Of a stretch of DNA of 12,276 nucleotides, positions 1 to 6,960 are shown piece after piece. The stretch lies in IMG/VR virus record IMGVR_UViG_2609459774_000003, positions 1 through 12,276 of that record; one strand, given 5' to 3'. This DNA comes from a virus. Its lineage: Duplodnaviria > Heunggongvirae > Uroviricota > Caudoviricetes. Position numbers and translations under genes: made by a program. How positions within the stretch are numbered: the stretch's first letter is position 1; each line of letters begins with the position of its first letter. The notes under the pieces are model-generated. The model was not told the origin of the DNA. It was given only the letters and a program-made list of their open reading frames with translations, and did no database searches.

Positions 1-651
1 TTACCAGTCAATCCAGAGCGGACCGTGTTCAGCGTAAATATAACTGTACACATCCAGATTATATTTGTGGTCTGTTAAGAACAGGCCGCAAATACATGCC
101 GAAGCTTCCAGGGCAGCGGCTCTGTTACTGAATAACCATGTGGCAACATTCCAGCGTTTTTCTGCATCCCAGTCTTTCTCAAGGCCTGATACCATGAAGA
201 AACCGTTAGTGTTGCCATCAAATAATTCTGTTTCCAGATTTTTAAGCAATGCCTGATGGACTCTTGCCAGGTATTCCGCCGGAATTTCGCCACGAATTCT
301 GATGAGATTGTCATAAACAAACATGTTCCCCGCATATGGCGATTTTTCTTTCTTGTTTTTTAAACCAGCATCATGAGCAAACTGATCAATTTCTTCTTCC
401 GTTGGTTTCGTATTGATGTTTTGCGCTGTCGTTTCTGCAATTTTATTTGCCACACTATCTGAGTCGTGTTTATTTACAGACGCACAGAAATACAATCCGG
501 TAAACGCATCGCGCACATTACGAGCCATATTATCAGTGTCTTTTTTCGTTACCGATTCCAATGCAAGTTCGTTCAGACGATGACGAAGTGTGTGTGCTGC
601 AATCTCCTGGATTGAAGTAGGTAAATCTTTAAATTCCATCGTCAACCTCAT
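1..651 (-). CDS. Hypothetical prophage early-left operon protein (216 aa), function unknown
   Basis: Complete ORF with ATG at 651..649 and stop (TAA on minus strand) at 3..1. Its ATG overlaps the stop of the upstream small ORF (CTGATG on minus strand), suggesting translational coupling. No family recognised by eye; moderately AT-rich. Confidence 0.55.
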   Translation of the reverse strand: MRLTMEFKDLPTSIQEIAAHTLRHRLNELALESVTKKDTDNMARNVRDAFTGLYFCASVNKHDSDSVANKIAETTAQNINTKPTEEEIDQFAHDAGLKNKKEKSPYAGNMFVYDNLIRIRGEIPAEYLARVHQALLKNLETELFDGNTNGFFMVSGLEKDWDAEKRWNVATWLFSNRAAALEASACICGLFLTDHKYNLDVYSYIYAEHGPLWIDW

Positions 652-884
652 CAGTCAGAGTTTCTTGCTAACCAGCGATGCGCGCCAGCTTCGGTTTTAA
701 ACGTTTTGCTTTTGGTATACGTCATCGCGGTGAACGTGCCGTCCTGGTTGGGAAACACGCCGCACACCAGAGATTCGTTGTTGCCAAGATCGATAGTATC
801 CATGTTGACCTCATTTCCCCTTAACGCCGGGGTAGCGGAACAAAAACCTGCTGCATAGTTATTAAAGTTGAACCCTGCCGTCAT
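651..884 (-). CDS. Small prophage protein; size and position are consistent with YdaF/YdaG-like small proteins of Rac-type prophages
   Basis: ORF 884..651 on minus strand; GAGG motif 6 nt upstream of the ATG at 884. An internal ATG at 803..801 is also preceded by GAGGT with a 5-nt spacer and would give a 50-aa product, so the true start is ambiguous. Lies downstream of the leftward promoter candidate. Confidence 0.45.
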   Translation of the reverse strand: MTAGFNFNNYAAGFCSATPALRGNEVNMDTIDLGNNESLVCGVFPNQDGTFTAMTYTKSKTFKTEAGAHRWLARNSD

Positions 885-984
885 GTTCTTACGCCTCGGG
901 CTGGCTACTTAACCCCTGACCACTGCCTGGTAACTCGAGGTATTGCCCTGTATTGTGTGGGACGGGATGGGTTGGTATGGGAAA

Positions 985-1026
985 ACTATAGGAAATGCCT
1001 AATTACTTGTCAATAGGCTATGCCTA
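985..1026 (-). promoter_or_regulatory. Leftward PL-like promoter with two operator half-palindromes (OL-like)
   Basis: On the minus strand: -35 TTGACA (1013..1008), 17-bp spacer, -10 TATAGT (990..985). 13-bp dyad sites TAGGCTATGCCTA (1014..1026) and imperfect TAGGAAATGCCTA (989..1001), centres 25 bp apart. Forms a 23-bp perfect inverted repeat with the PR module. Confidence 0.45.
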
Positions 1027-1121
1027 ATAATTTGGGCGCAACCTAATAGGTGATGGTTTGTGGAAGAGGTAGTAGGAGTTAACTAACGGGAACTAGGAAT
1101 TTCCCGTCGGACCATATAAGT

Positions 1122-1598
1122 TTAAGTTCCTGTCTTGGTGATGTTCTGGCTTTTCCGTTTTGATTCTTGATTTTTCAGATAGTTAGCTACCTTCATTTCC
1201 ATTGCGGCAATGTAGGCGCGAACGTCATGATCAACCCAACTAGGCTCCGTAGCATTTCCAGATAAGATGAAAGCCACAATTGCTCTTTTTTCATCAGAGG
1301 CGGCTTGATAAAGGCTGTTTATGTCTAAAAGTTCACTTTTTGTATCTGAAGTGGATGGGGTTGGTATGGGGTATTCGTTAAGCCCCCAATGCTCTGGACC
1401 AACCACATCAGAAAAGAAACGCCATAGTTCTGGAAGTTTGTCTTTACTTATCGAACCTTTCTTAATCCAGTCATGGATTGATGGTGGTTGGACTTTGAAA
1501 TGACGTGCGATTTCCGCCTTTGATTTGACGGCTCCTGATGCAATTTTTTTGTTAATGGCCTGCTCTATCGCTCGGCCTAAGTCTTTACCACTAAGCAT
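1122..1598 (-). CDS. racR: Prophage repressor, RacR-like (158 aa)
   Basis: 158-aa ORF; sequence recalled as matching the Rac prophage repressor RacR, with an HTH-like segment near the N-terminus. AGGAGA RBS 8 nt upstream of the ATG at 1598. Divergent from the ydaS-like gene, a classic immunity-region layout. Confidence 0.8.
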   Translation of the reverse strand: MLSGKDLGRAIEQAINKKIASGAVKSKAEIARHFKVQPPSIHDWIKKGSISKDKLPELWRFFSDVVGPEHWGLNEYPIPTPSTSDTKSELLDINSLYQAASDEKRAIVAFILSGNATEPSWVDHDVRAYIAAMEMKVANYLKNQESKRKSQNITKTGT

Positions 1599-1627
1599 TG
1601 CTTAATAGTCTCCTATGCGCATCGCGT

Positions 1628-1695
1628 TAGGCAATCCCTATTCTCGATGTATTAGGCATAGCCTATTGACAATTTCATTAGGCTAAGCCTAATAT
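1628..1695 (+). promoter_or_regulatory. Rightward PR-like promoter with tripartite operator (OR-like) in the racR-ydaS intergenic region
   Basis: -35 TTGACA (1666..1671), 18-bp spacer, -10 TAATAT (1690..1695). Three 13-bp dyads TAGGC-N3-GCCTA: TAGGCAATCCCTA (1628..1640), TAGGCATAGCCTA (1653..1665), TAGGCTAAGCCTA (1679..1691), centres 25-26 bp apart. Confidence 0.5.
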
Positions 1696-1722
1696 TGTTG
1701 CGTGTTTTTTGGAGTTCATTCG

Positions 1723-2043
1723 ATGAAAAAAGATAACTATTCATTCAAACGAGCTTGTGCTGTTGTCGGTGGGCAATCAGCAATGGCTAGGCTTTTAGGT
1801 GTATCTCCTCCAAGCGTAAATCAATGGATCAAAGGTGTACGTCAGTTACCTGCTGAGAGATGTCCTGCGATTGAACGAGCAACAAAAGGTGGTGTCCTGT
1901 GTGAAGAACTTCGTCCTGATGTTGATTGGACATACTTACGACGCTCGTCATGTTATTCGCAGAATATGTCGATGAAGCAACCAAATGACGAAAACGATCA
2001 TAAAAACGCAGAAATGCATGACGTGTGGCAATCAGGCAGATGA
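1723..2043 (+). CDS. ydaS: Cro-like HTH regulator, YdaS-like
   Basis: ATG at 1723 preceded by GGAG (1711..1714); the ORF-track start at 1702 lacks an RBS. N-terminus MKKDNYSFKRACAVVGGQSAMARLLGVSPPSVNQWIKG is HTH-like and recalled as YdaS. Divergent from racR. Confidence 0.75.
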   Translation: MKKDNYSFKRACAVVGGQSAMARLLGVSPPSVNQWIKGVRQLPAERCPAIERATKGGVLCEELRPDVDWTYLRRSSCYSQNMSMKQPNDENDHKNAEMHDVWQSGR

Positions 2044-2248
2044 TCCGCATCACATCATGGGTCATGGACTGGGAGGGATGGGAACAAAGGCTGATGATTT
2101 GTTTGTTATTCCGCTGTGCCGTAAATGCCATAGCGAACTACACGCCGGGGTAAAAGATTTTGAAGAAAAACACGGCAGCCAGCTGTTGTTGCTGATTCGT
2201 TTTTTAATGCACGCGAGAAATTCGGGTGTCCTGAAGTGGAAAGCATGA
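1985..2248 (+). CDS. DUF1364/YbcO-like Cys/His-rich putative zinc-dependent nuclease
   Basis: 87-aa ORF with CxxC ... HH ... PLCRKCHSELH pattern resembling nin-region YbcO-type proteins. Its 5' end overlaps the ydaS-like ORF (start ambiguous, 1985 or 2018); its stop TGA (2246..2248) abuts the rusA ATG. Confidence 0.55.
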   Translation: MTKTIIKTQKCMTCGNQADDPHHIMGHGLGGMGTKADDLFVIPLCRKCHSELHAGVKDFEEKHGSQLLLLIRFLMHARNSGVLKWKA

Positions 2249-2614
2249 ATGACTGAACGCATAGAATTTGTTTTGCCTTACCCGCCAACGGTGAACACTT
2301 ACTGGCGACGTCGTGGCAGCACATATTTTGTATCAAAAGCCGGTGAGCGTTATCGCCGTGATGTGGCGCTTATTGTTCGCCAGCAGCGACTGAAATTAAA
2401 CCTGTCCGGACGGCTGGCGATAAAGATTATTGCAGAGCCACCGGATAAACGTCGTCGTGACCTGGACAATATCCTGAAAGCACCACTGGATGCGCTGACG
2501 CATGCCGGACTTCTCATAGACGACGAGCAGTTTGATGAAATCAATATTGTGCGCGGTCAGCTCGTTCCTGGGGGGCGGCTGGGCGTGAAGATTTACAAAA
2601 TTGAGAGTGAGTGA
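2249..2614 (+). CDS. rusA: Holliday junction resolvase RusA
   Basis: 121-aa ORF; the RRRDLDN segment and overall size match the RusA family. ATG follows immediately after the upstream stop (ATGAATG), and its stop overlaps the next start (GTGA). Confidence 0.85.
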   Translation: MTERIEFVLPYPPTVNTYWRRRGSTYFVSKAGERYRRDVALIVRQQRLKLNLSGRLAIKIIAEPPDKRRRDLDNILKAPLDALTHAGLLIDDEQFDEINIVRGQLVPGGRLGVKIYKIESE

Positions 2615-3168
2615 TCGTAAATATGATATACCCGGAAATTACAGGCAAAAGCGGCGAGCATTTACGTCTAAAAACGCTGGAAGCCGTCTGGATCCAGGGG
2701 AAATTACGGATGTGGGGGCGTTGGTCGTACATAGGTGGTGGCAAACCAGGAAATATGTTCAATCAGTTGCTGGCATCCAAAACACTTACAAAAACTGCGA
2801 TCAATGAAGCTCTGCGCAGAATAAAAAAATCAGGGATTGATAAAACTGAGCTGGAAGCGTTTTTGCGTGAGATGATCAACAGCAAGCAAAAGAGCGGGCT
2901 GGCTTATTGTACTGATGCCGAGGCGTTATGTATCGATCGGGTAATTAGTGAAGTGTTGGCAGAGCATCCGGGATTGATTTGTATCCTCCGACAAAGATAT
3001 GAAGGGCTGGGTATGAGCAAGCTGAAAATGGCAGAACAGTTAAAAAAGAATCACCCTGACTGGAGCCTGAAAACTTGTAGAAATCGCATTGATGTTTGGT
3101 TGGCGATGGCTGAAACCATGCTTTTCCTTCCAATGTGCGTGGCACTTCGGTGCTTTTCTGATAACTGA
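2611..3168 (+). CDS. Putative late-gene antiterminator Q-like protein
   Basis: 185-aa ORF in the canonical position after the nin/rusA genes. GTG start at 2611 overlaps the rusA stop; alternative ATG at 2623. Assignment is mainly positional, with weak recalled similarity to small Q-family proteins. Confidence 0.5.
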   Translation: MIVNMIYPEITGKSGEHLRLKTLEAVWIQGKLRMWGRWSYIGGGKPGNMFNQLLASKTLTKTAINEALRRIKKSGIDKTELEAFLREMINSKQKSGLAYCTDAEALCIDRVISEVLAEHPGLICILRQRYEGLGMSKLKMAEQLKKNHPDWSLKTCRNRIDVWLAMAETMLFLPMCVALRCFSDN

Positions 3169-3197
3169 TGATAGAAGTGCATCAGCTATCAATCTTG

Positions 3198-3226
3198 TTG
3201 ACGTTCATCAAGGTCTGGACAATACT
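3198..3226 (+). promoter_or_regulatory. Candidate sigma70 promoter downstream of Q (pR'-like position)
   Basis: TTGACG (3198..3203), 17-bp spacer, AATACT (3221..3226), about 30 bp upstream of the ATPase start. The -10 is weak; this is a sequence-only guess. Confidence 0.25.
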
Positions 3227-3257
3227 TACGTTAAGTTCCAACATATGGAAGATAAGA

Positions 3258-4448
3258 ATGATATTTACACGATTGAGATTTATCAATTTGTACGCTTTTG
3301 AGGATGCAGAGCTTAACCTGTCCTATCCAAGGAAACCTGTAAACATGCCTCTTGATGGGGAGTTTTTGGCTGGACGGCCTAAATTTTACTATAAAAAAGT
3401 CTGTATCATAACGGGGGGAAATGCTTCAGGTAAGACGTCACTAGGGCGAATTCTTTGTGGAATTCAGGTGTTTCTAAGAACCAAAGAGTTGCGGAGTAAT
3501 CTGCGAGTGAATAATAAAAATAATGATGCTTCGTTTGAAGTGGACTTTGCTACGGAGGATCATTTTCATCATCGTTTGTATGTACGCTTTGCTACCAGTG
3601 AAGGCGGAGCGCACATAATCAAAGAAATTAAATATGGTTTTGTTCAAATAGCATTAAATGATTCTTGCCATAAAACCACAGAAAAACTGAATCAACTCTT
3701 TTCTGGAAGGGCCCCAGAAGATACAGAATATTTTTTTCAGGAACTAGCTACTGATAGCGAACCAGTTGTATTGGAGTTTTTCAAGCAACTTAAGTTTTTT
3801 GGTGGATGGTACTATTTGTTGTCTGAAACTAAAGAGAGTACCACTGCAATTTCAGGAATGAATAAAAATATTCTTGAAAGGATAATTCGCACTTTCGATT
3901 CAAGTATTATAGGAGTTACCGAGATGCTGGAGTCTGAAAGTGACGGGGATGAAAATAAATCATCTGCGGTTTATCTGATTAAATTTAAAAACTCTGATTC
4001 TCTTGTCGTTACCAGTAAAGGTGAAATAATTAACTCAGACCGTCTTTCTCGAGGAACATACGAGGCAGTGACGGTAGCGCATTTTATAAGCGCTATTATC
4101 TCTGATTGTGAAAGACTAGGTAAGCAATCTCTAATACCATCAATGACTTATTTTCTTGACGAGAAATTGGCTTATACACATTCAGAGTTAGAGCGTATGA
4201 TTGTGGCGCTGATTATATCTAATTTGAAAGAAAATACTCAGTTTTTCTATACAACGCATAACATGGATATTTTTGAGTTGGATCTGCCTGTTCACTCGTT
4301 CATTTTTATTAAAAAAACGAAAGACTATTCGGAGTTTGTTGAAGCAAATTCAGTTGTTAAAAAAAATGACCGTAGCATGCGAAACGCTGTTGAGAGAGAT
4401 GTCTTTGGTGTCTTACCTGACACATCATTAGTATCGGAGCTACTCTGA
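3258..4448 (+). CDS. OLD/AAA_21-like ABC-type ATPase (396 aa), candidate defence-system ATPase
   Basis: N-terminus MIFTRLRFINLYAFEDAELNL typical of SMC/RecF-like ABC ATPases. Walker A ITGGNASGKTS, ABC signature-like LSRGT, Walker B YFLDE, H-loop TTHN, with about 200 aa inserted between Walker A and the signature. AT-rich relative to flanks. The ORF-track start at 3168 is an RBS-less upstream extension; ATG at 3258 chosen. Confidence 0.75.
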   Translation: MIFTRLRFINLYAFEDAELNLSYPRKPVNMPLDGEFLAGRPKFYYKKVCIITGGNASGKTSLGRILCGIQVFLRTKELRSNLRVNNKNNDASFEVDFATEDHFHHRLYVRFATSEGGAHIIKEIKYGFVQIALNDSCHKTTEKLNQLFSGRAPEDTEYFFQELATDSEPVVLEFFKQLKFFGGWYYLLSETKESTTAISGMNKNILERIIRTFDSSIIGVTEMLESESDGDENKSSAVYLIKFKNSDSLVVTSKGEIINSDRLSRGTYEAVTVAHFISAIISDCERLGKQSLIPSMTYFLDEKLAYTHSELERMIVALIISNLKENTQFFYTTHNMDIFELDLPVHSFIFIKKTKDYSEFVEANSVVKKNDRSMRNAVERDVFGVLPDTSLVSELL

Positions 4449-4981
4449 TGGCGGGGTTGTCTAAAATAAGAATAATTTTTGTCGAAGGTGAAACAGAAAA
4501 CTCTCTTTTTCTGAAGATGAAACAACAGAGAGTTATTGATGCCAAATCAATTGTAAAAAGAAACTTTTGGCAAGAGAGCATAAGAAATTATGCGATTACT
4601 ATTCCGAAGGGAAGTGATATACTAATTGTCTTTGATAGTGATGAAGTGGAGCAATCTGCAAGATTCATTGAAAATGTAAAGTTCCTTAAAAACAGAGGGC
4701 ATAAAGTTTATCTTTTGCAGCAGAAAAGAAATTTTGAGGAGGAGTTGGCCTGGTGTTGCGGAATTCCTGTAAAAAAACTAATTGCTGGGTTCTGTGCAAA
4801 AAAAACATCGGGTATAAATGATTTCAAGAGAGATTTTATTGCTTGTAACAATCAACTTTCAAAGTTACTGAAAATGGGCATGCAGGAAACTAAGTGGTTT
4901 ACAAGAGATTTACATGCTGTATTGGAGCCTGTTGCAAGTTTTAAGTCATCTTTTTCTAAACATTTCAGGTTAACAAGATGA
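4448..4981 (+). CDS. Small TOPRIM-domain protein (177 aa), putative nuclease partner of the ATPase
   Basis: N-terminal IIFVEGETE (conserved TOPRIM glutamate) and ILIVFDSDE (DxD motif). ATG overlaps the ATPase stop (TGATG), with GGAG 8 nt upstream. AT-rich like its partner. Confidence 0.7.
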   Translation: MAGLSKIRIIFVEGETENSLFLKMKQQRVIDAKSIVKRNFWQESIRNYAITIPKGSDILIVFDSDEVEQSARFIENVKFLKNRGHKVYLLQQKRNFEEELAWCCGIPVKKLIAGFCAKKTSGINDFKRDFIACNNQLSKLLKMGMQETKWFTRDLHAVLEPVASFKSSFSKHFRLTR

Positions 4982-5611: not shown

Positions 5612-6661
5612 ATGGCCAATACTGTAAAAATATCCAGTTGTGAGTTAATCAACGCTGATTGCCTGGAATTTATCCAGACCTTACCGGAAAATTCTGTCGA
5701 TCTGATAGTCACAGACCCGCCATACTTTAAAGTGAAGCCCGAGGGCTGGGATAACCAGTGGGAGGGCGACGATGATTACCTGAAATGGCTGGACCAGTGT
5801 CTGGCGCAGTTCTGGCGGGTACTGAAGCCTGCCGGAAGTCTTTACCTGTTCTGTGGTCATCGCCTGGCATCTGACACCGAAATCATGATGCGTGAGCGCT
5901 TTAATGTGCTGAACCACATTATCTGGGCGAAGCCGTCCGGACGCTGGAACGGGTGCAATAAGGAAAGTCTGCGGGCGTATTTTCCGGCAACAGAGCGCAT
6001 TCTGTTTGCAGAACATTATCAGGGACCGTATCGCCCGAAAGATGATGGCTATGTGGAGCAGGGGCGCGAGCTAAAACAGCACGTCATGGCCCCGCTGATT
6101 TCTTACTTTCGTGATGCGCGTAAATCACTGGGAATAACGTCAAAACAGATAGCGGAAGCCACCGGAAAGAAAAACATGGCTTCGCACTGGTTTGGTACCA
6201 GTCAGTGGCAGTTACCGAACGAGGGTGATTACAACAAATTGCAGGCGTTGTTTGCGCGTGTTGCGGCAGAAAAACATCAGCGCGGGGAACTGGAAAAGCC
6301 ACACCACCAGCTGGTCAGCACATACAGTGAGCTGAACCGGCAGTATACGGAACTGCTGAGTGAATATAAAAATTTGCGGCGGTATTTCGGTGTGACGGCG
6401 CAGGTTCCGTACACCGATGTCTGGACGCATAAACCGGTGCAGTACTATCCAGGAAAACATCCGTGCGAAAAACCGGCAGAAATGCTGCAGCAGATAATCA
6501 ACGCGAGCAGTCGTCCGGGAGACCTGGTTGCAGATTTTTTTATGGGTTCAGGTTCAACGGTAAAAGCGGCGATGGCACTGGGGCGTTGTGCGATTGGTGT
6601 TGAGCTGGAGACCGGACGTTTTGAACAGACAGTCAGGGAAGTTCAGGATTTAATCGTTTGA
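5612..6661 (+). CDS. DNA N6-adenine/N4-cytosine methyltransferase, beta-class (orphan, phage-type)
   Basis: Motif IV DPPY (VTDPPYF) near the N-terminus and motif I FxGxG (DFFMGSGST) near the C-terminus, the beta-class order. No adjacent restriction endonuclease is visible. Confidence 0.85.
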   Translation: MANTVKISSCELINADCLEFIQTLPENSVDLIVTDPPYFKVKPEGWDNQWEGDDDYLKWLDQCLAQFWRVLKPAGSLYLFCGHRLASDTEIMMRERFNVLNHIIWAKPSGRWNGCNKESLRAYFPATERILFAEHYQGPYRPKDDGYVEQGRELKQHVMAPLISYFRDARKSLGITSKQIAEATGKKNMASHWFGTSQWQLPNEGDYNKLQALFARVAAEKHQRGELEKPHHQLVSTYSELNRQYTELLSEYKNLRRYFGVTAQVPYTDVWTHKPVQYYPGKHPCEKPAEMLQQIINASSRPGDLVADFFMGSGSTVKAAMALGRCAIGVELETGRFEQTVREVQDLIV

Positions 6662-6710
6662 AACGGATGAGATTGCAGAATTAATTACGCACCATTATTA
6701 TTCTGCTCCC

Positions 6711-6786
6711 GGCCCTTTAGCTCAGTGGTGAGAGCGAGCGACTCATAATCGCCAGGTCGCTGGTTCAAATCCAGCAAGGGCCACCA
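6711..6786 (+). tRNA. ileZ: tRNA-Ile2 (anticodon CAU, lysidine type; could be annotated tRNA-Met by software)
   Basis: Manually folded cloverleaf: acceptor GGCCCTT/AAGGGCC, D-stem GCTC/GAGC, anticodon loop CTCATAA, T-arm GCTGG-TTCAAAT-CCAGC, encoded CCA. Closely resembles E. coli tRNA-Ile2. Confidence 0.8.
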
Positions 6787-6793
6787 TCACATA

Positions 6794-6870
6794 CCGCCAT
6801 TAGCTCATCAGGATAGAGCGCCAGCCTTCGAAGCTGGTTGCGCGGGGTTCGAGTCCTCGATGGCGGTCCA
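6794..6870 (+). tRNA. argN: tRNA-Arg (anticodon UCG)
   Basis: Manually folded cloverleaf: acceptor CCGCCAT/ATGGCGG (unusual C1:G72), D-stem GCTC/GAGC, anticodon stem CCAGC/GCTGG, loop CTTCGAA, T-arm with one G:U pair, encoded CCA. Confidence 0.7.
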
Positions 6871-6883
6871 TTATCTGCATTAT

Positions 6884-6960
6884 GCGTTGTTAGCTCAGCC
6901 GGACAGAGCAATTGCCTTCTAAGCAATCGGTCACTGGTTCGAATCCAGTACAACGCGCCA
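6884..6960 (+). tRNA. argO: tRNA-Arg (anticodon UCU)
   Basis: Manually folded cloverleaf: acceptor GCGTTGT/ACAACGC, D-stem GCTC/GAGC, anticodon stem ATTGC/GCAAT, loop CTTCTAA, T-arm ACTGG-TTCGAAT-CCAGT, encoded CCA. Confidence 0.8.

Follow-up and report, generated by a model that had tools for sequence, protein, structure and literature searches.

Does the repressor gene of a Rac-type prophage lie between two matched sets of operators, each with its own outward promoter, and is the set beyond the end of the gene a working early-left control region? We addressed this question in a stretch of 12,276 nucleotides (hereafter, the window). Rac is the cryptic prophage behind recET recombineering, division arrest by KilR and the 'essential' racR gene, and its regulation is actively studied. 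Segment 850-1800 of the window is 99.9% identical to many E. coli chromosomes, in which racR and an HTH protein are annotated there and in which the racR segment belongs to a prophage with adjoining genes for integrase, excisionase, exonuclease and dicB. In the window, the ORF at 1723-2043 is directly followed by a truncated DUF968 gene, RusA and a Q-like antiterminator (Pfam), and tRNAs, a methylase and tail genes lie further along. The window is the immunity region of an E. coli Rac-type prophage, within a rearranged and defective prophage. The positions of all features are given in Table 1. The DUF1391 ORF listed there is shorter in its RefSeq form (about 648-803).

Table 1. Genes, predicted or assigned promoter elements, dyads and repeats around racR, in window coordinates.
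Feature	Position	Strand	Basis or remark
First leftward ORF past PL, DUF1391 (YdaF/YdfA) family	651..884	-	Pfam DUF1391, 1.9e-29
Predicted PL -10, TATAGT	985..990	-	Promoter scan; nearly invariant in 52 variants
OL1, PL-proximal dyad TAGGAAATGCCTA, 1 mismatch	989..1001		Fills the PL spacer and the first two -10 bases
Inverted repeat, left arm, 23 bp (OL2 and -35)	1007..1029		Inverted-repeat pairing
Predicted PL -35, TTGACA	1008..1013	-	Abuts OL2; essentially invariant in 52 variants
OL2, PL-distal dyad TAGGCTATGCCTA, perfect	1014..1026		Directly upstream of the PL -35
Possible weak third left site TGGGCGCAACCTA, 2 mismatches	1033..1045		19 bp from OL2; not counted as an operator
Small stem-loop between the racR stop codon and OL	1087..1108	-	Fold -13.2 kcal/mol, z -1.9
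racR, repressor gene, 158 aa	1122..1598	-	RefSeq annotation of 99.9%-identical genomes
OR4, degenerate dyad TAAGCATTGCTTA, 2 mismatches	1592..1604		Covers the racR start codon (ATG = 1598-1596); published 'O3' (operator 3)
OR3, dyad TAGGCAATCCCTA, 1 mismatch	1628..1640		Over the racR promoters; homologous to PR-distal TAGGCAATTCCTA of relatives outside Escherichia
Inverted repeat, right arm, 23 bp (OR2 and -35)	1650..1672		Inverted-repeat pairing
OR2, PR-distal dyad TAGGCATAGCCTA, perfect	1653..1665		Directly upstream of the PR -35
PR (= PydaST) -35, TTGACA	1666..1671	+	Promoter scan; experimentally assigned in K-12 (PMC9638921, PMC11879457)
OR1, PR-proximal dyad TAGGCTAAGCCTA, perfect	1679..1691		In the PR spacer and the first two -10 bases; published O1
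PR (= PydaST) -10, TAATAT	1690..1695	+	Promoter scan; box substitution abolished activity in K-12 (PMC9638921)
ydaS-like cro analogue, first gene of the rightward operon	1723..2043	+	Pfam YdaS_toxin 4e-30, P22_Cro 1e-8

The initial annotation of this DNA had described mirror-image promoter-operator modules on either side of racR, and re-reading the window confirmed its coordinates and sequences for the repeat, the hexamers and the dyads. The repeat is perfect over 23 bp, as claimed: TTGTCAATAGGCTATGCCTAATA at 1007-1029 is the exact reverse complement of 1650-1672. Each arm does hold a perfect TTGACA -35 (minus strand, 1013-1008; plus strand, 1666-1671), and the dyad spacings, put at 25-26 bp, measure 25, 25 and 26 bp centre to centre. 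Allowing one mismatch, the pattern TAGGC-N3-GCCTA has five occurrences in the 12,276 bases, all flanking racR, against 0.13 expected by chance, and none of 200 shuffles reached five. These are the five 13-bp dyads of the annotation, although two of them, at 989 and 1628, are imperfect. The description of OR as tripartite accounted for three dyads but was an undercount, missing a fourth at 1592-1604. Because this sixth, degenerate dyad lies over the racR start codon, OR is four-part in E. coli and not three-part, and four inverted repeats have indeed been reported in the racR-ydaS region of E. coli Rac (NAR 2024, PMC11014345). Dyad matches with two mismatches are not above chance in number (8 found versus 3.65 expected); OR4 aligns with the -6 dyad of all relatives described below. 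A candidate third operator on the left, at 1033-1045, was rejected: it has two mismatches, lies out of register at 19 bp and is poorly conserved.

We scanned for sigma-70 promoters at the default threshold of 9/12 and obtained exactly two sites in segment 850-1800, one per strand. The leftward site on the minus strand, TTGACA (1013-1008) and TATAGT (990-985) separated by 17 bp, scores 11/12, and the rightward site on the plus strand, TTGACA (1666-1671) and TAATAT (1690-1695) separated by 18 bp, scores 10/12. The number of promoters at 9/12 does not exceed that in shuffles (2 versus 1.7 expected); the PL site is the sole match of at least 11/12 in the whole window, where 0.22 would be expected, and is the best sigma-70 match there. 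Transcription from PL is predicted to start at about 978 ± 2 on the minus strand.

The OR half of the finding is correct but already known, since the right module has been published for K-12 Rac. The racR-ydaS intergenic region of the window is 92% identical to that of K-12 and its half-sites are identical; the substitutions all spare the half-sites and fall mostly in the N3 spacers and in the DNA between dyads. Krishnamurthi et al. (2017) described three variant GCCTAA/TTAGGC repeats in the 123-bp intergenic region, observed three complexes of RacR with intergenic DNA by EMSA and enrichment by ChIP-qPCR, and found the repression of ydaS in K-12 to be RacR-dependent (PMC5700373). Subsequent work (NAR 2022) assigned a single ydaS start by primer extension, with TTGACA as -35 and TAATAT as -10, and showed that replacing the -10 abolished PydaST (PMC9638921). 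In DNase I footprints from K-12 the PydaST region was protected first, at the lowest RacR concentration, and one RacR operator was placed over the racR ATG (PMC9638921). The same study derived the RacR monomer motif ATTAGGC and the operator consensus (T/A)TAGGC-n3-GCCTA(T/A) (PMC9638921), which the window matches with three perfect sites, two sites with one mismatch and one site with two mismatches. OR1, OR2 and PR of the window are the published RacR-repressed promoter PydaST, with ydaS and ydaT as analogues of cro and cII. The reading of the dyads as RacR operators is thus supported on the right by the EMSA, ChIP-qPCR and footprint data from K-12 (PMC5700373, PMC9638921) and on the left by sequence comparison.

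K-12 has the left module too. Its dyads TAGGTAATGCCTA and TAGGCTATGCCTA, with TTGTCAA between them, lie 100-126 bp beyond the racR stop codon and upstream of ydaG, with TAGGTAATGCCTA at the position of OL1. The K-12 counterpart of window segment 960-1060 is at about 1,419,600-1,419,700 of NC_000913.3, and the predicted PL start corresponds to about 1,419,619 on its minus strand. The left sites were invisible to the published binding work because its RacR DNA substrates reached from -186 to +85 with respect to the racR start (PMC9638921), and the RacR regulon, including the racR-proximal ydaFG operon, has been called uncharacterised (PMC11014345, PMC11879457). We found no description of a Rac OL or PL in the literature that we searched; EcoCyc and RegulonDB lay outside this search, and an earlier description is possible. 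The left half, OL and PL, appears to be an expected and well-supported counterpart that is apparently undescribed.

To assess conservation, we built an alignment of 52 variants: 48 distinct IMG/VR sequences, drawn from 79 loci, plus the window, K-12 and two genome loci. The half-sites of the five non-coding dyads (OR4 was left out) had a mean entropy of 0.034 and 92% invariant positions, compared with 0.245 and 59% for the other non-coding DNA and 0.305 and 40% for the N3 spacers. The promoter hexamers were equally constrained, with a mean entropy of 0.016 and 92% invariant positions. The conservation of the half-sites was significant (Mann-Whitney p ~5e-6), only 1 of 20,000 random placements was as conserved, and the footprint held on either side separately, with p ~1e-4 for the left alone. 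The off-consensus base of OL1, 993, toggles between A and T in the 52 variants and is never the consensus C, suggesting that OL1 is maintained as a weak site.

The alignment also bears on a different use of the mirrored arms. Perfect 23-bp inverted repeats flanking a 620-bp segment recall the fim and hin switches, and the arms could be recombination sites at which the racR segment is flipped. However, all 79 of the 79 full-length loci on viral contigs, K-12 and the genome loci are collinear over 801 bp, with no inverted form among them. Each arm consists of a dyad and a promoter hexamer, the dyad recurs at three to four further positions that are not mirrored, and neither the annotation nor Pfam places a recombinase gene next to the module. 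An invertible switch is therefore extremely improbable.

We extended the comparison with a scan of one genome per species, which yielded twelve loci with RacR relatives. Downstream of racR homologues we found two dyads spaced by 25 bp; the first is followed by TTGAC(A) and the second by a hexamer resembling a -10. This left pair is present in E. ruysiae, Mixta (63% identity), a Pseudomonadota MAG (57%), Proteus (60%) and two Achromobacter loci; in Achromobacter it is placed 1.6-2.3 kb past the repressor gene and its flanks cannot be aligned. No such pair turned up within 3 kb at the Klebsiella, Nitrosomonas and Aeromonas loci. The motif of the left module reads dyad-TTGAC(A)-N5-7-dyad-(-10), and the PR cassette has the same plan. 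PL and PR of E. ruysiae, Mixta, the MAG, Proteus and Achromobacter share a distal TTAGGC-N3-GCCTA, an abutting TTGACA, five to seven bases and a proximal TTAGGC-N3-GCCTA, with the -10 starting on the TA that ends the proximal dyad. Every divergent PL module has TTGAC(A) after its distal dyad, and dyads equivalent to OL1 occur in Mixta, the MAG, Proteus and Achromobacter. Across the relatives the N-terminal DNA-binding domain of RacR is 65-96% identical to that of the window (96% over the first 80 residues for K-12 RacR), and PSI(H/Y)DWI(K/N)KGSISKDKLP, around the published recognition helix (PMC11014345), is near-invariant, which fits the unchanged half-site across relatives.

This retention across bacterial orders and classes, with fully diverged flanks, argues against dismissing the left module as a chance resemblance or as the functionless, decaying relic of a duplication. 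Duplication did occur at this locus, as part of the Escherichia OR looks copied from the left cassette (see below). Nevertheless, the enrichment of dyads over chance, the promoter statistics and the footprint on the left side taken by itself are at odds with chance or a relic, and we regard a functionless module as highly improbable. The left cassette is most likely the Rac PL/OL.

Published expression data are consistent with a promoter at this position. In RNA-seq, the transcripts of ydaF, ydaG, kilR, ydaE and racC rose 40-70-fold when RacR fell (PMC6765115, PMC11014345), while racR mRNA went down (PMC6765115), and the same genes rise upon CRISPRi of racR (bioRxiv 10.64898/2026.09.06.749655). 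As racR mRNA falls meanwhile, the rise of the leftward genes is not read-through from the racR promoters, and a separate RacR-controlled promoter between racR and ydaG is supported. Part of this derepression could be indirect, via YdaS/YdaT or via excision. Within the racR region itself, an Rfam search gave no match (three tRNAs elsewhere in the window were its sole hits), and a terminator scan detected no intrinsic terminator between racR and OL. The stem-loop in this interval lacks a U-tract; it is kept in K-12 through a change of G:C to A:U and could conceivably be a racR 3' structure.

Could the left dyads act as auxiliary operators only, anchoring a cooperative or looped repression of PR and the autoregulation of racR, with the hexamers unused? 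RacR is octameric (PMC11014345), the left pair mirrors the OR1-OR2 pair, and the PL start is predicted rather than mapped, all of which would suit such a role. The hexamers are, however, as conserved as the half-sites, each divergent locus has TTGAC(A) and a -10-like hexamer alongside its dyads, PL scores higher than any other sigma-70 site in the window and co-directional ORFs follow it in the Mixta, MAG and Proteus loci. The leftward genes also respond to a drop in RacR while racR mRNA declines (PMC6765115). Conservation of the hexamers at the level of the half-sites, together with the ORFs after PL, makes an operator-only role unlikely. It is less likely still that the left dyads chiefly serve YdaS, the Cro analogue, or some other factor, and not RacR. 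YdaS and RacR have been described as competitors for the same operators (PMC11014345), and PL933P of CP-933P is repressed by both PaaR2 and YdaS (PMC8630535), but the left dyads match the consensus footprinted with RacR, and sharing of operators is the norm in lambda and compatible with control by RacR. YdaS probably shares the left sites. Overall, we consider it very likely that two outward promoter-operator cassettes bracket racR and that the left one is a RacR-repressed early-left promoter.

Each cassette consists of a distal RacR dyad, an abutting TTGACA -35, a proximal dyad filling the spacer and a -10 that starts at the last 'TA' of the proximal dyad. In the mechanism that we propose, RacR dimers on OL1, over the spacer and the start of the -10, and on OL2, abutting the -35, would block access of RNA polymerase to PL, in parallel to the published effect of OR1 and OR2 at PydaST. 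Bound at OL, RacR would keep the leftward operon silent; in the window this operon would start with the DUF1391 gene, and in K-12 it would comprise ydaG-ydaF and continue towards kilR, recET and xis/int. OR3 and OR4, which lie over the racR promoters and the start codon, would serve the autoregulation of racR. We infer both the occupancy of OL1 and OL2 by RacR and the activity of PL from the sequence and its conservation. If RacR directly controls the leftward operon, loss of RacR alone, and not YdaS, could explain part of the reported excision and toxicity of Rac.

The mirror identity of the two cassettes may have its own history. A comparison of the arms with each other revealed a constrained core of 21 bp, TTGTCAATAGGCTATGCCTAA, with identity stopping abruptly at both sides, and in K-12 the arms differ by one base, in the N3 spacer. 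As the core common to the arms is 21 bp long and co-variation is absent from the outer positions, the perfect 23-mer is simply the commonest pairing of alleles. Concerted evolution of the arms beyond the 21-bp core, to which the window and K-12 by themselves would point, was considered and rejected, as the outermost positions showed no consistent co-variation. All relatives outside Escherichia have TAGGCAATTCCTA as their PR-distal dyad and TAGGCATAGCCTA, or a close variant of it, at the PL-distal position. The Escherichia PR cassette has a distal dyad of the PL type, and the TAGGCAATCCCTA dyad (OR3) lies one step nearer to racR, without an adjoining TTGACA. When the intergenic regions are aligned, the relatives' three dyads correspond to OR2, OR3 and OR4 of E. 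coli, and the Escherichia PR cassette lies about 26 bp further outward. The Escherichia lineage has probably gained one operator unit, copied from the left cassette, and such a copy would account for the four dyads of OR as well as for the mirror identity.

RacR forms an octamer in size exclusion, and its authors assign the eight subunits to the four intergenic dyads (PMC11014345). An octamer might instead bridge OL1-OL2 with OR1-OR2 through a loop around racR, as lambda CI does; we see this as possible, at somewhat less than even chances. The centres of OL and OR are 639-690 bp apart in the window. The distance between them is not conserved in phase, being 614-641 bp in Enterobacterales and the MAG and 1.9-2.6 kb in Achromobacter. 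If looping takes place, the published assignment of the octamer to four intergenic dyads needs revision. A reading that joins a working OL/PL, an octamer loop of about 640 bp, direct control of the leftward operon by RacR and a fourth OR operator copied from the left unit of distal dyad and -35 is more tentative than the loop by itself, and we put it forward with some doubt.

Compared with K-12 Rac, the right half of the window is the same element, with TTGACA and TAATAT, an 18-bp spacer and the same consensus; the K-12 publications stop at the intergenic region and the racR start, and the left dyads and promoter lie beyond. The lambda OL/OR logic proposed in the initial annotation holds up well. 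As in lambda, the repressor gene is located between two operator clusters of the same specificity, each overlapping an outward promoter sequence, an arrangement kept in the relatives, and PL is co-directional with the repressor gene. The first rightward gene is of the Cro type (YdaS_toxin and P22_Cro on 1723-2043), and each cluster has an outward sigma-70 promoter by its sequence (11/12 and predicted on the left, 10/12 and mapped in K-12 on the right). Adjacent operators are 23-24 bp apart in lambda and 25-26 bp apart in Rac. Rac differs from lambda in that OL has two sites and not three, OR has four in E. coli, the operator is a 13-bp core within the 17-bp ATTAGGC-N3-GCCTAAT, and each cassette has one dyad upstream of the -35 and one in the spacer. 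Further likenesses reported for Rac are the leaderless repressor mRNA (PMC9638921) and the octameric repressor (PMC11014345), whereas YdaS reportedly does not repress racR (PMC9638921). RacR matched no Pfam family at E <= 1e-3 and no S24 peptidase domain, and its C-terminal fold has been reported to differ from that of CI (PMC11014345). RacR acts like CI at the DNA, yet stands outside the CI/LexA-type family of cleavable repressors, and without an S24 domain and with a different C-terminal fold it does not imply induction of the RecA type.

A precedent for the left promoter is found in the related prophage CP-933P, which has a similarly organised rightward ydaS/ydaT operon and an octameric repressor (Jurenas et al. 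2021, PMC8630535). Its PL933P has -35 and -10 hexamers identical to those of its PR and has OL operators, and repression was verified with a gfp fusion (PMC8630535). CP-933P differs in its unrelated repressor PaaR2, in its 18-bp palindromes of the GTTTAGTAA type and in the toxin-antitoxin pair between the repressor gene and OL (PMC8630535). The putative OL/PL of Rac would provide a concrete cis-element for the leftward derepression seen in K-12, bear on what the RacR octamer means, looping or four adjacent sites, and help to separate direct effects of RacR from those of YdaS/YdaT on excision. It fills a gap without changing the picture, because lambda biology predicts such an arrangement. Set beside lambda, CP-933P and K-12 Rac, the arrangement around racR corresponds to the ordinary lambdoid plan, in which the right set is the published one and the left set appears to be its expected counterpart.

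Relative to the Rac prophage of E. coli K-12 and to an E. coli genome that is 99.9% identical over window positions 850-1800, the window is missing the cII analogue ydaT as well as the genes for replication, and hence its prophage has a deletion right after the cro analogue, the ydaS-like gene. The DUF968 ORF found at this point is truncated and covers positions 96-169 of the 171 in the profile; the genes for RusA and the Q-like protein come next (see the table of features). Downstream of Q, the AAA ATPase was matched best by the AbiLi model, with weaker PADLOC matches to AriA and mad3, and the ORF behind it had zero matches in profile searches. These two genes may constitute a putative two-gene AbiL-like anti-phage system. 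At the left end of the window, the 216-aa ORF had no match in Pfam or PADLOC. Here the window departs from the E. coli genome to which it is otherwise 99.9% identical, whose annotation shows a ydfC/dicB arrangement.

Features of the prophage window and RacR-type ORFs of two Achromobacter loci (locus coordinates)
Feature	Position	Strand	Remarks
216-aa ORF	1-651	minus	distal end of putative leftward operon
Stem-loop	1087-1108	minus	folds at -13.2 kcal/mol (z -1.9), just past stop codon of racR
Truncated DUF968 ORF	within 1985-3168		profile match; directly after ydaS-like gene (1723-2043), overlapping its end
RusA, then Q-like DUF1133 protein	within 1985-3168		after truncated DUF968 ORF
AAA ATPase, 426 aa	within 3168-4981		PADLOC AbiLi model, 7.6e-26
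177-aa ORF	within 3168-4981		directly after AAA ATPase gene, stop/start codons overlapping
N6/N4 DNA methylase	within 5612-6957		Pfam, 1.9e-44
Three tRNA genes	6711-6783, 6794-6867, 6884-6957		after methylase gene
L011 RacR-type ORF, 366 aa	3001-4101		Achromobacter
L013 RacR-type ORF, 362 aa	3001-4089		Achromobacter

In K-12 an A:U pair replaces a G:C pair in the stem 3' of racR, which is thereby preserved; a classical terminator was ruled out here because the U-tract is missing. We also found two short perfect repeats that involve racR. The 13-bp direct repeat GGGTTGGTATGGG has one copy in the predicted start region of the leftward promoter PL (969-981), where the K-12 sequence differs, and the other within racR (1358-1370); a rough estimate puts the number expected in 951 bp below 0.01. 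The 12-base inverted repeat TCTTTTTTCATC / GATGAAAAAAGA, which joins a site within racR (1284-1295) to the ydaS start-codon region (1722-1733), is A/T-rich and may be due to chance.

Among the loci with RacR relatives, the K-12-type E. coli Rac immunity region was also present in JARKOR010000130.1, a whole contig of 5,219 bases binned as 'Candidatus Nanosynbacter'. Its RacR is 91% identical to that of the window, and its dyads have the same sequences and spacing as those of the E. coli loci L003 and L004. This contig is very probably mis-binned or a contaminant.

The two Achromobacter relatives have a much longer C-terminal part fused to the RacR-type DNA-binding domain, and several ORFs separate the gene from the cassette of PL and its operator OL, which is found 1.6-2.3 kb further downstream. 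The position of these ORFs, between the repressor gene and OL/PL, recalls the 'moron' slot occupied by rexAB in lambda and the toxin-antitoxin 'moron' slot of CP-933P.
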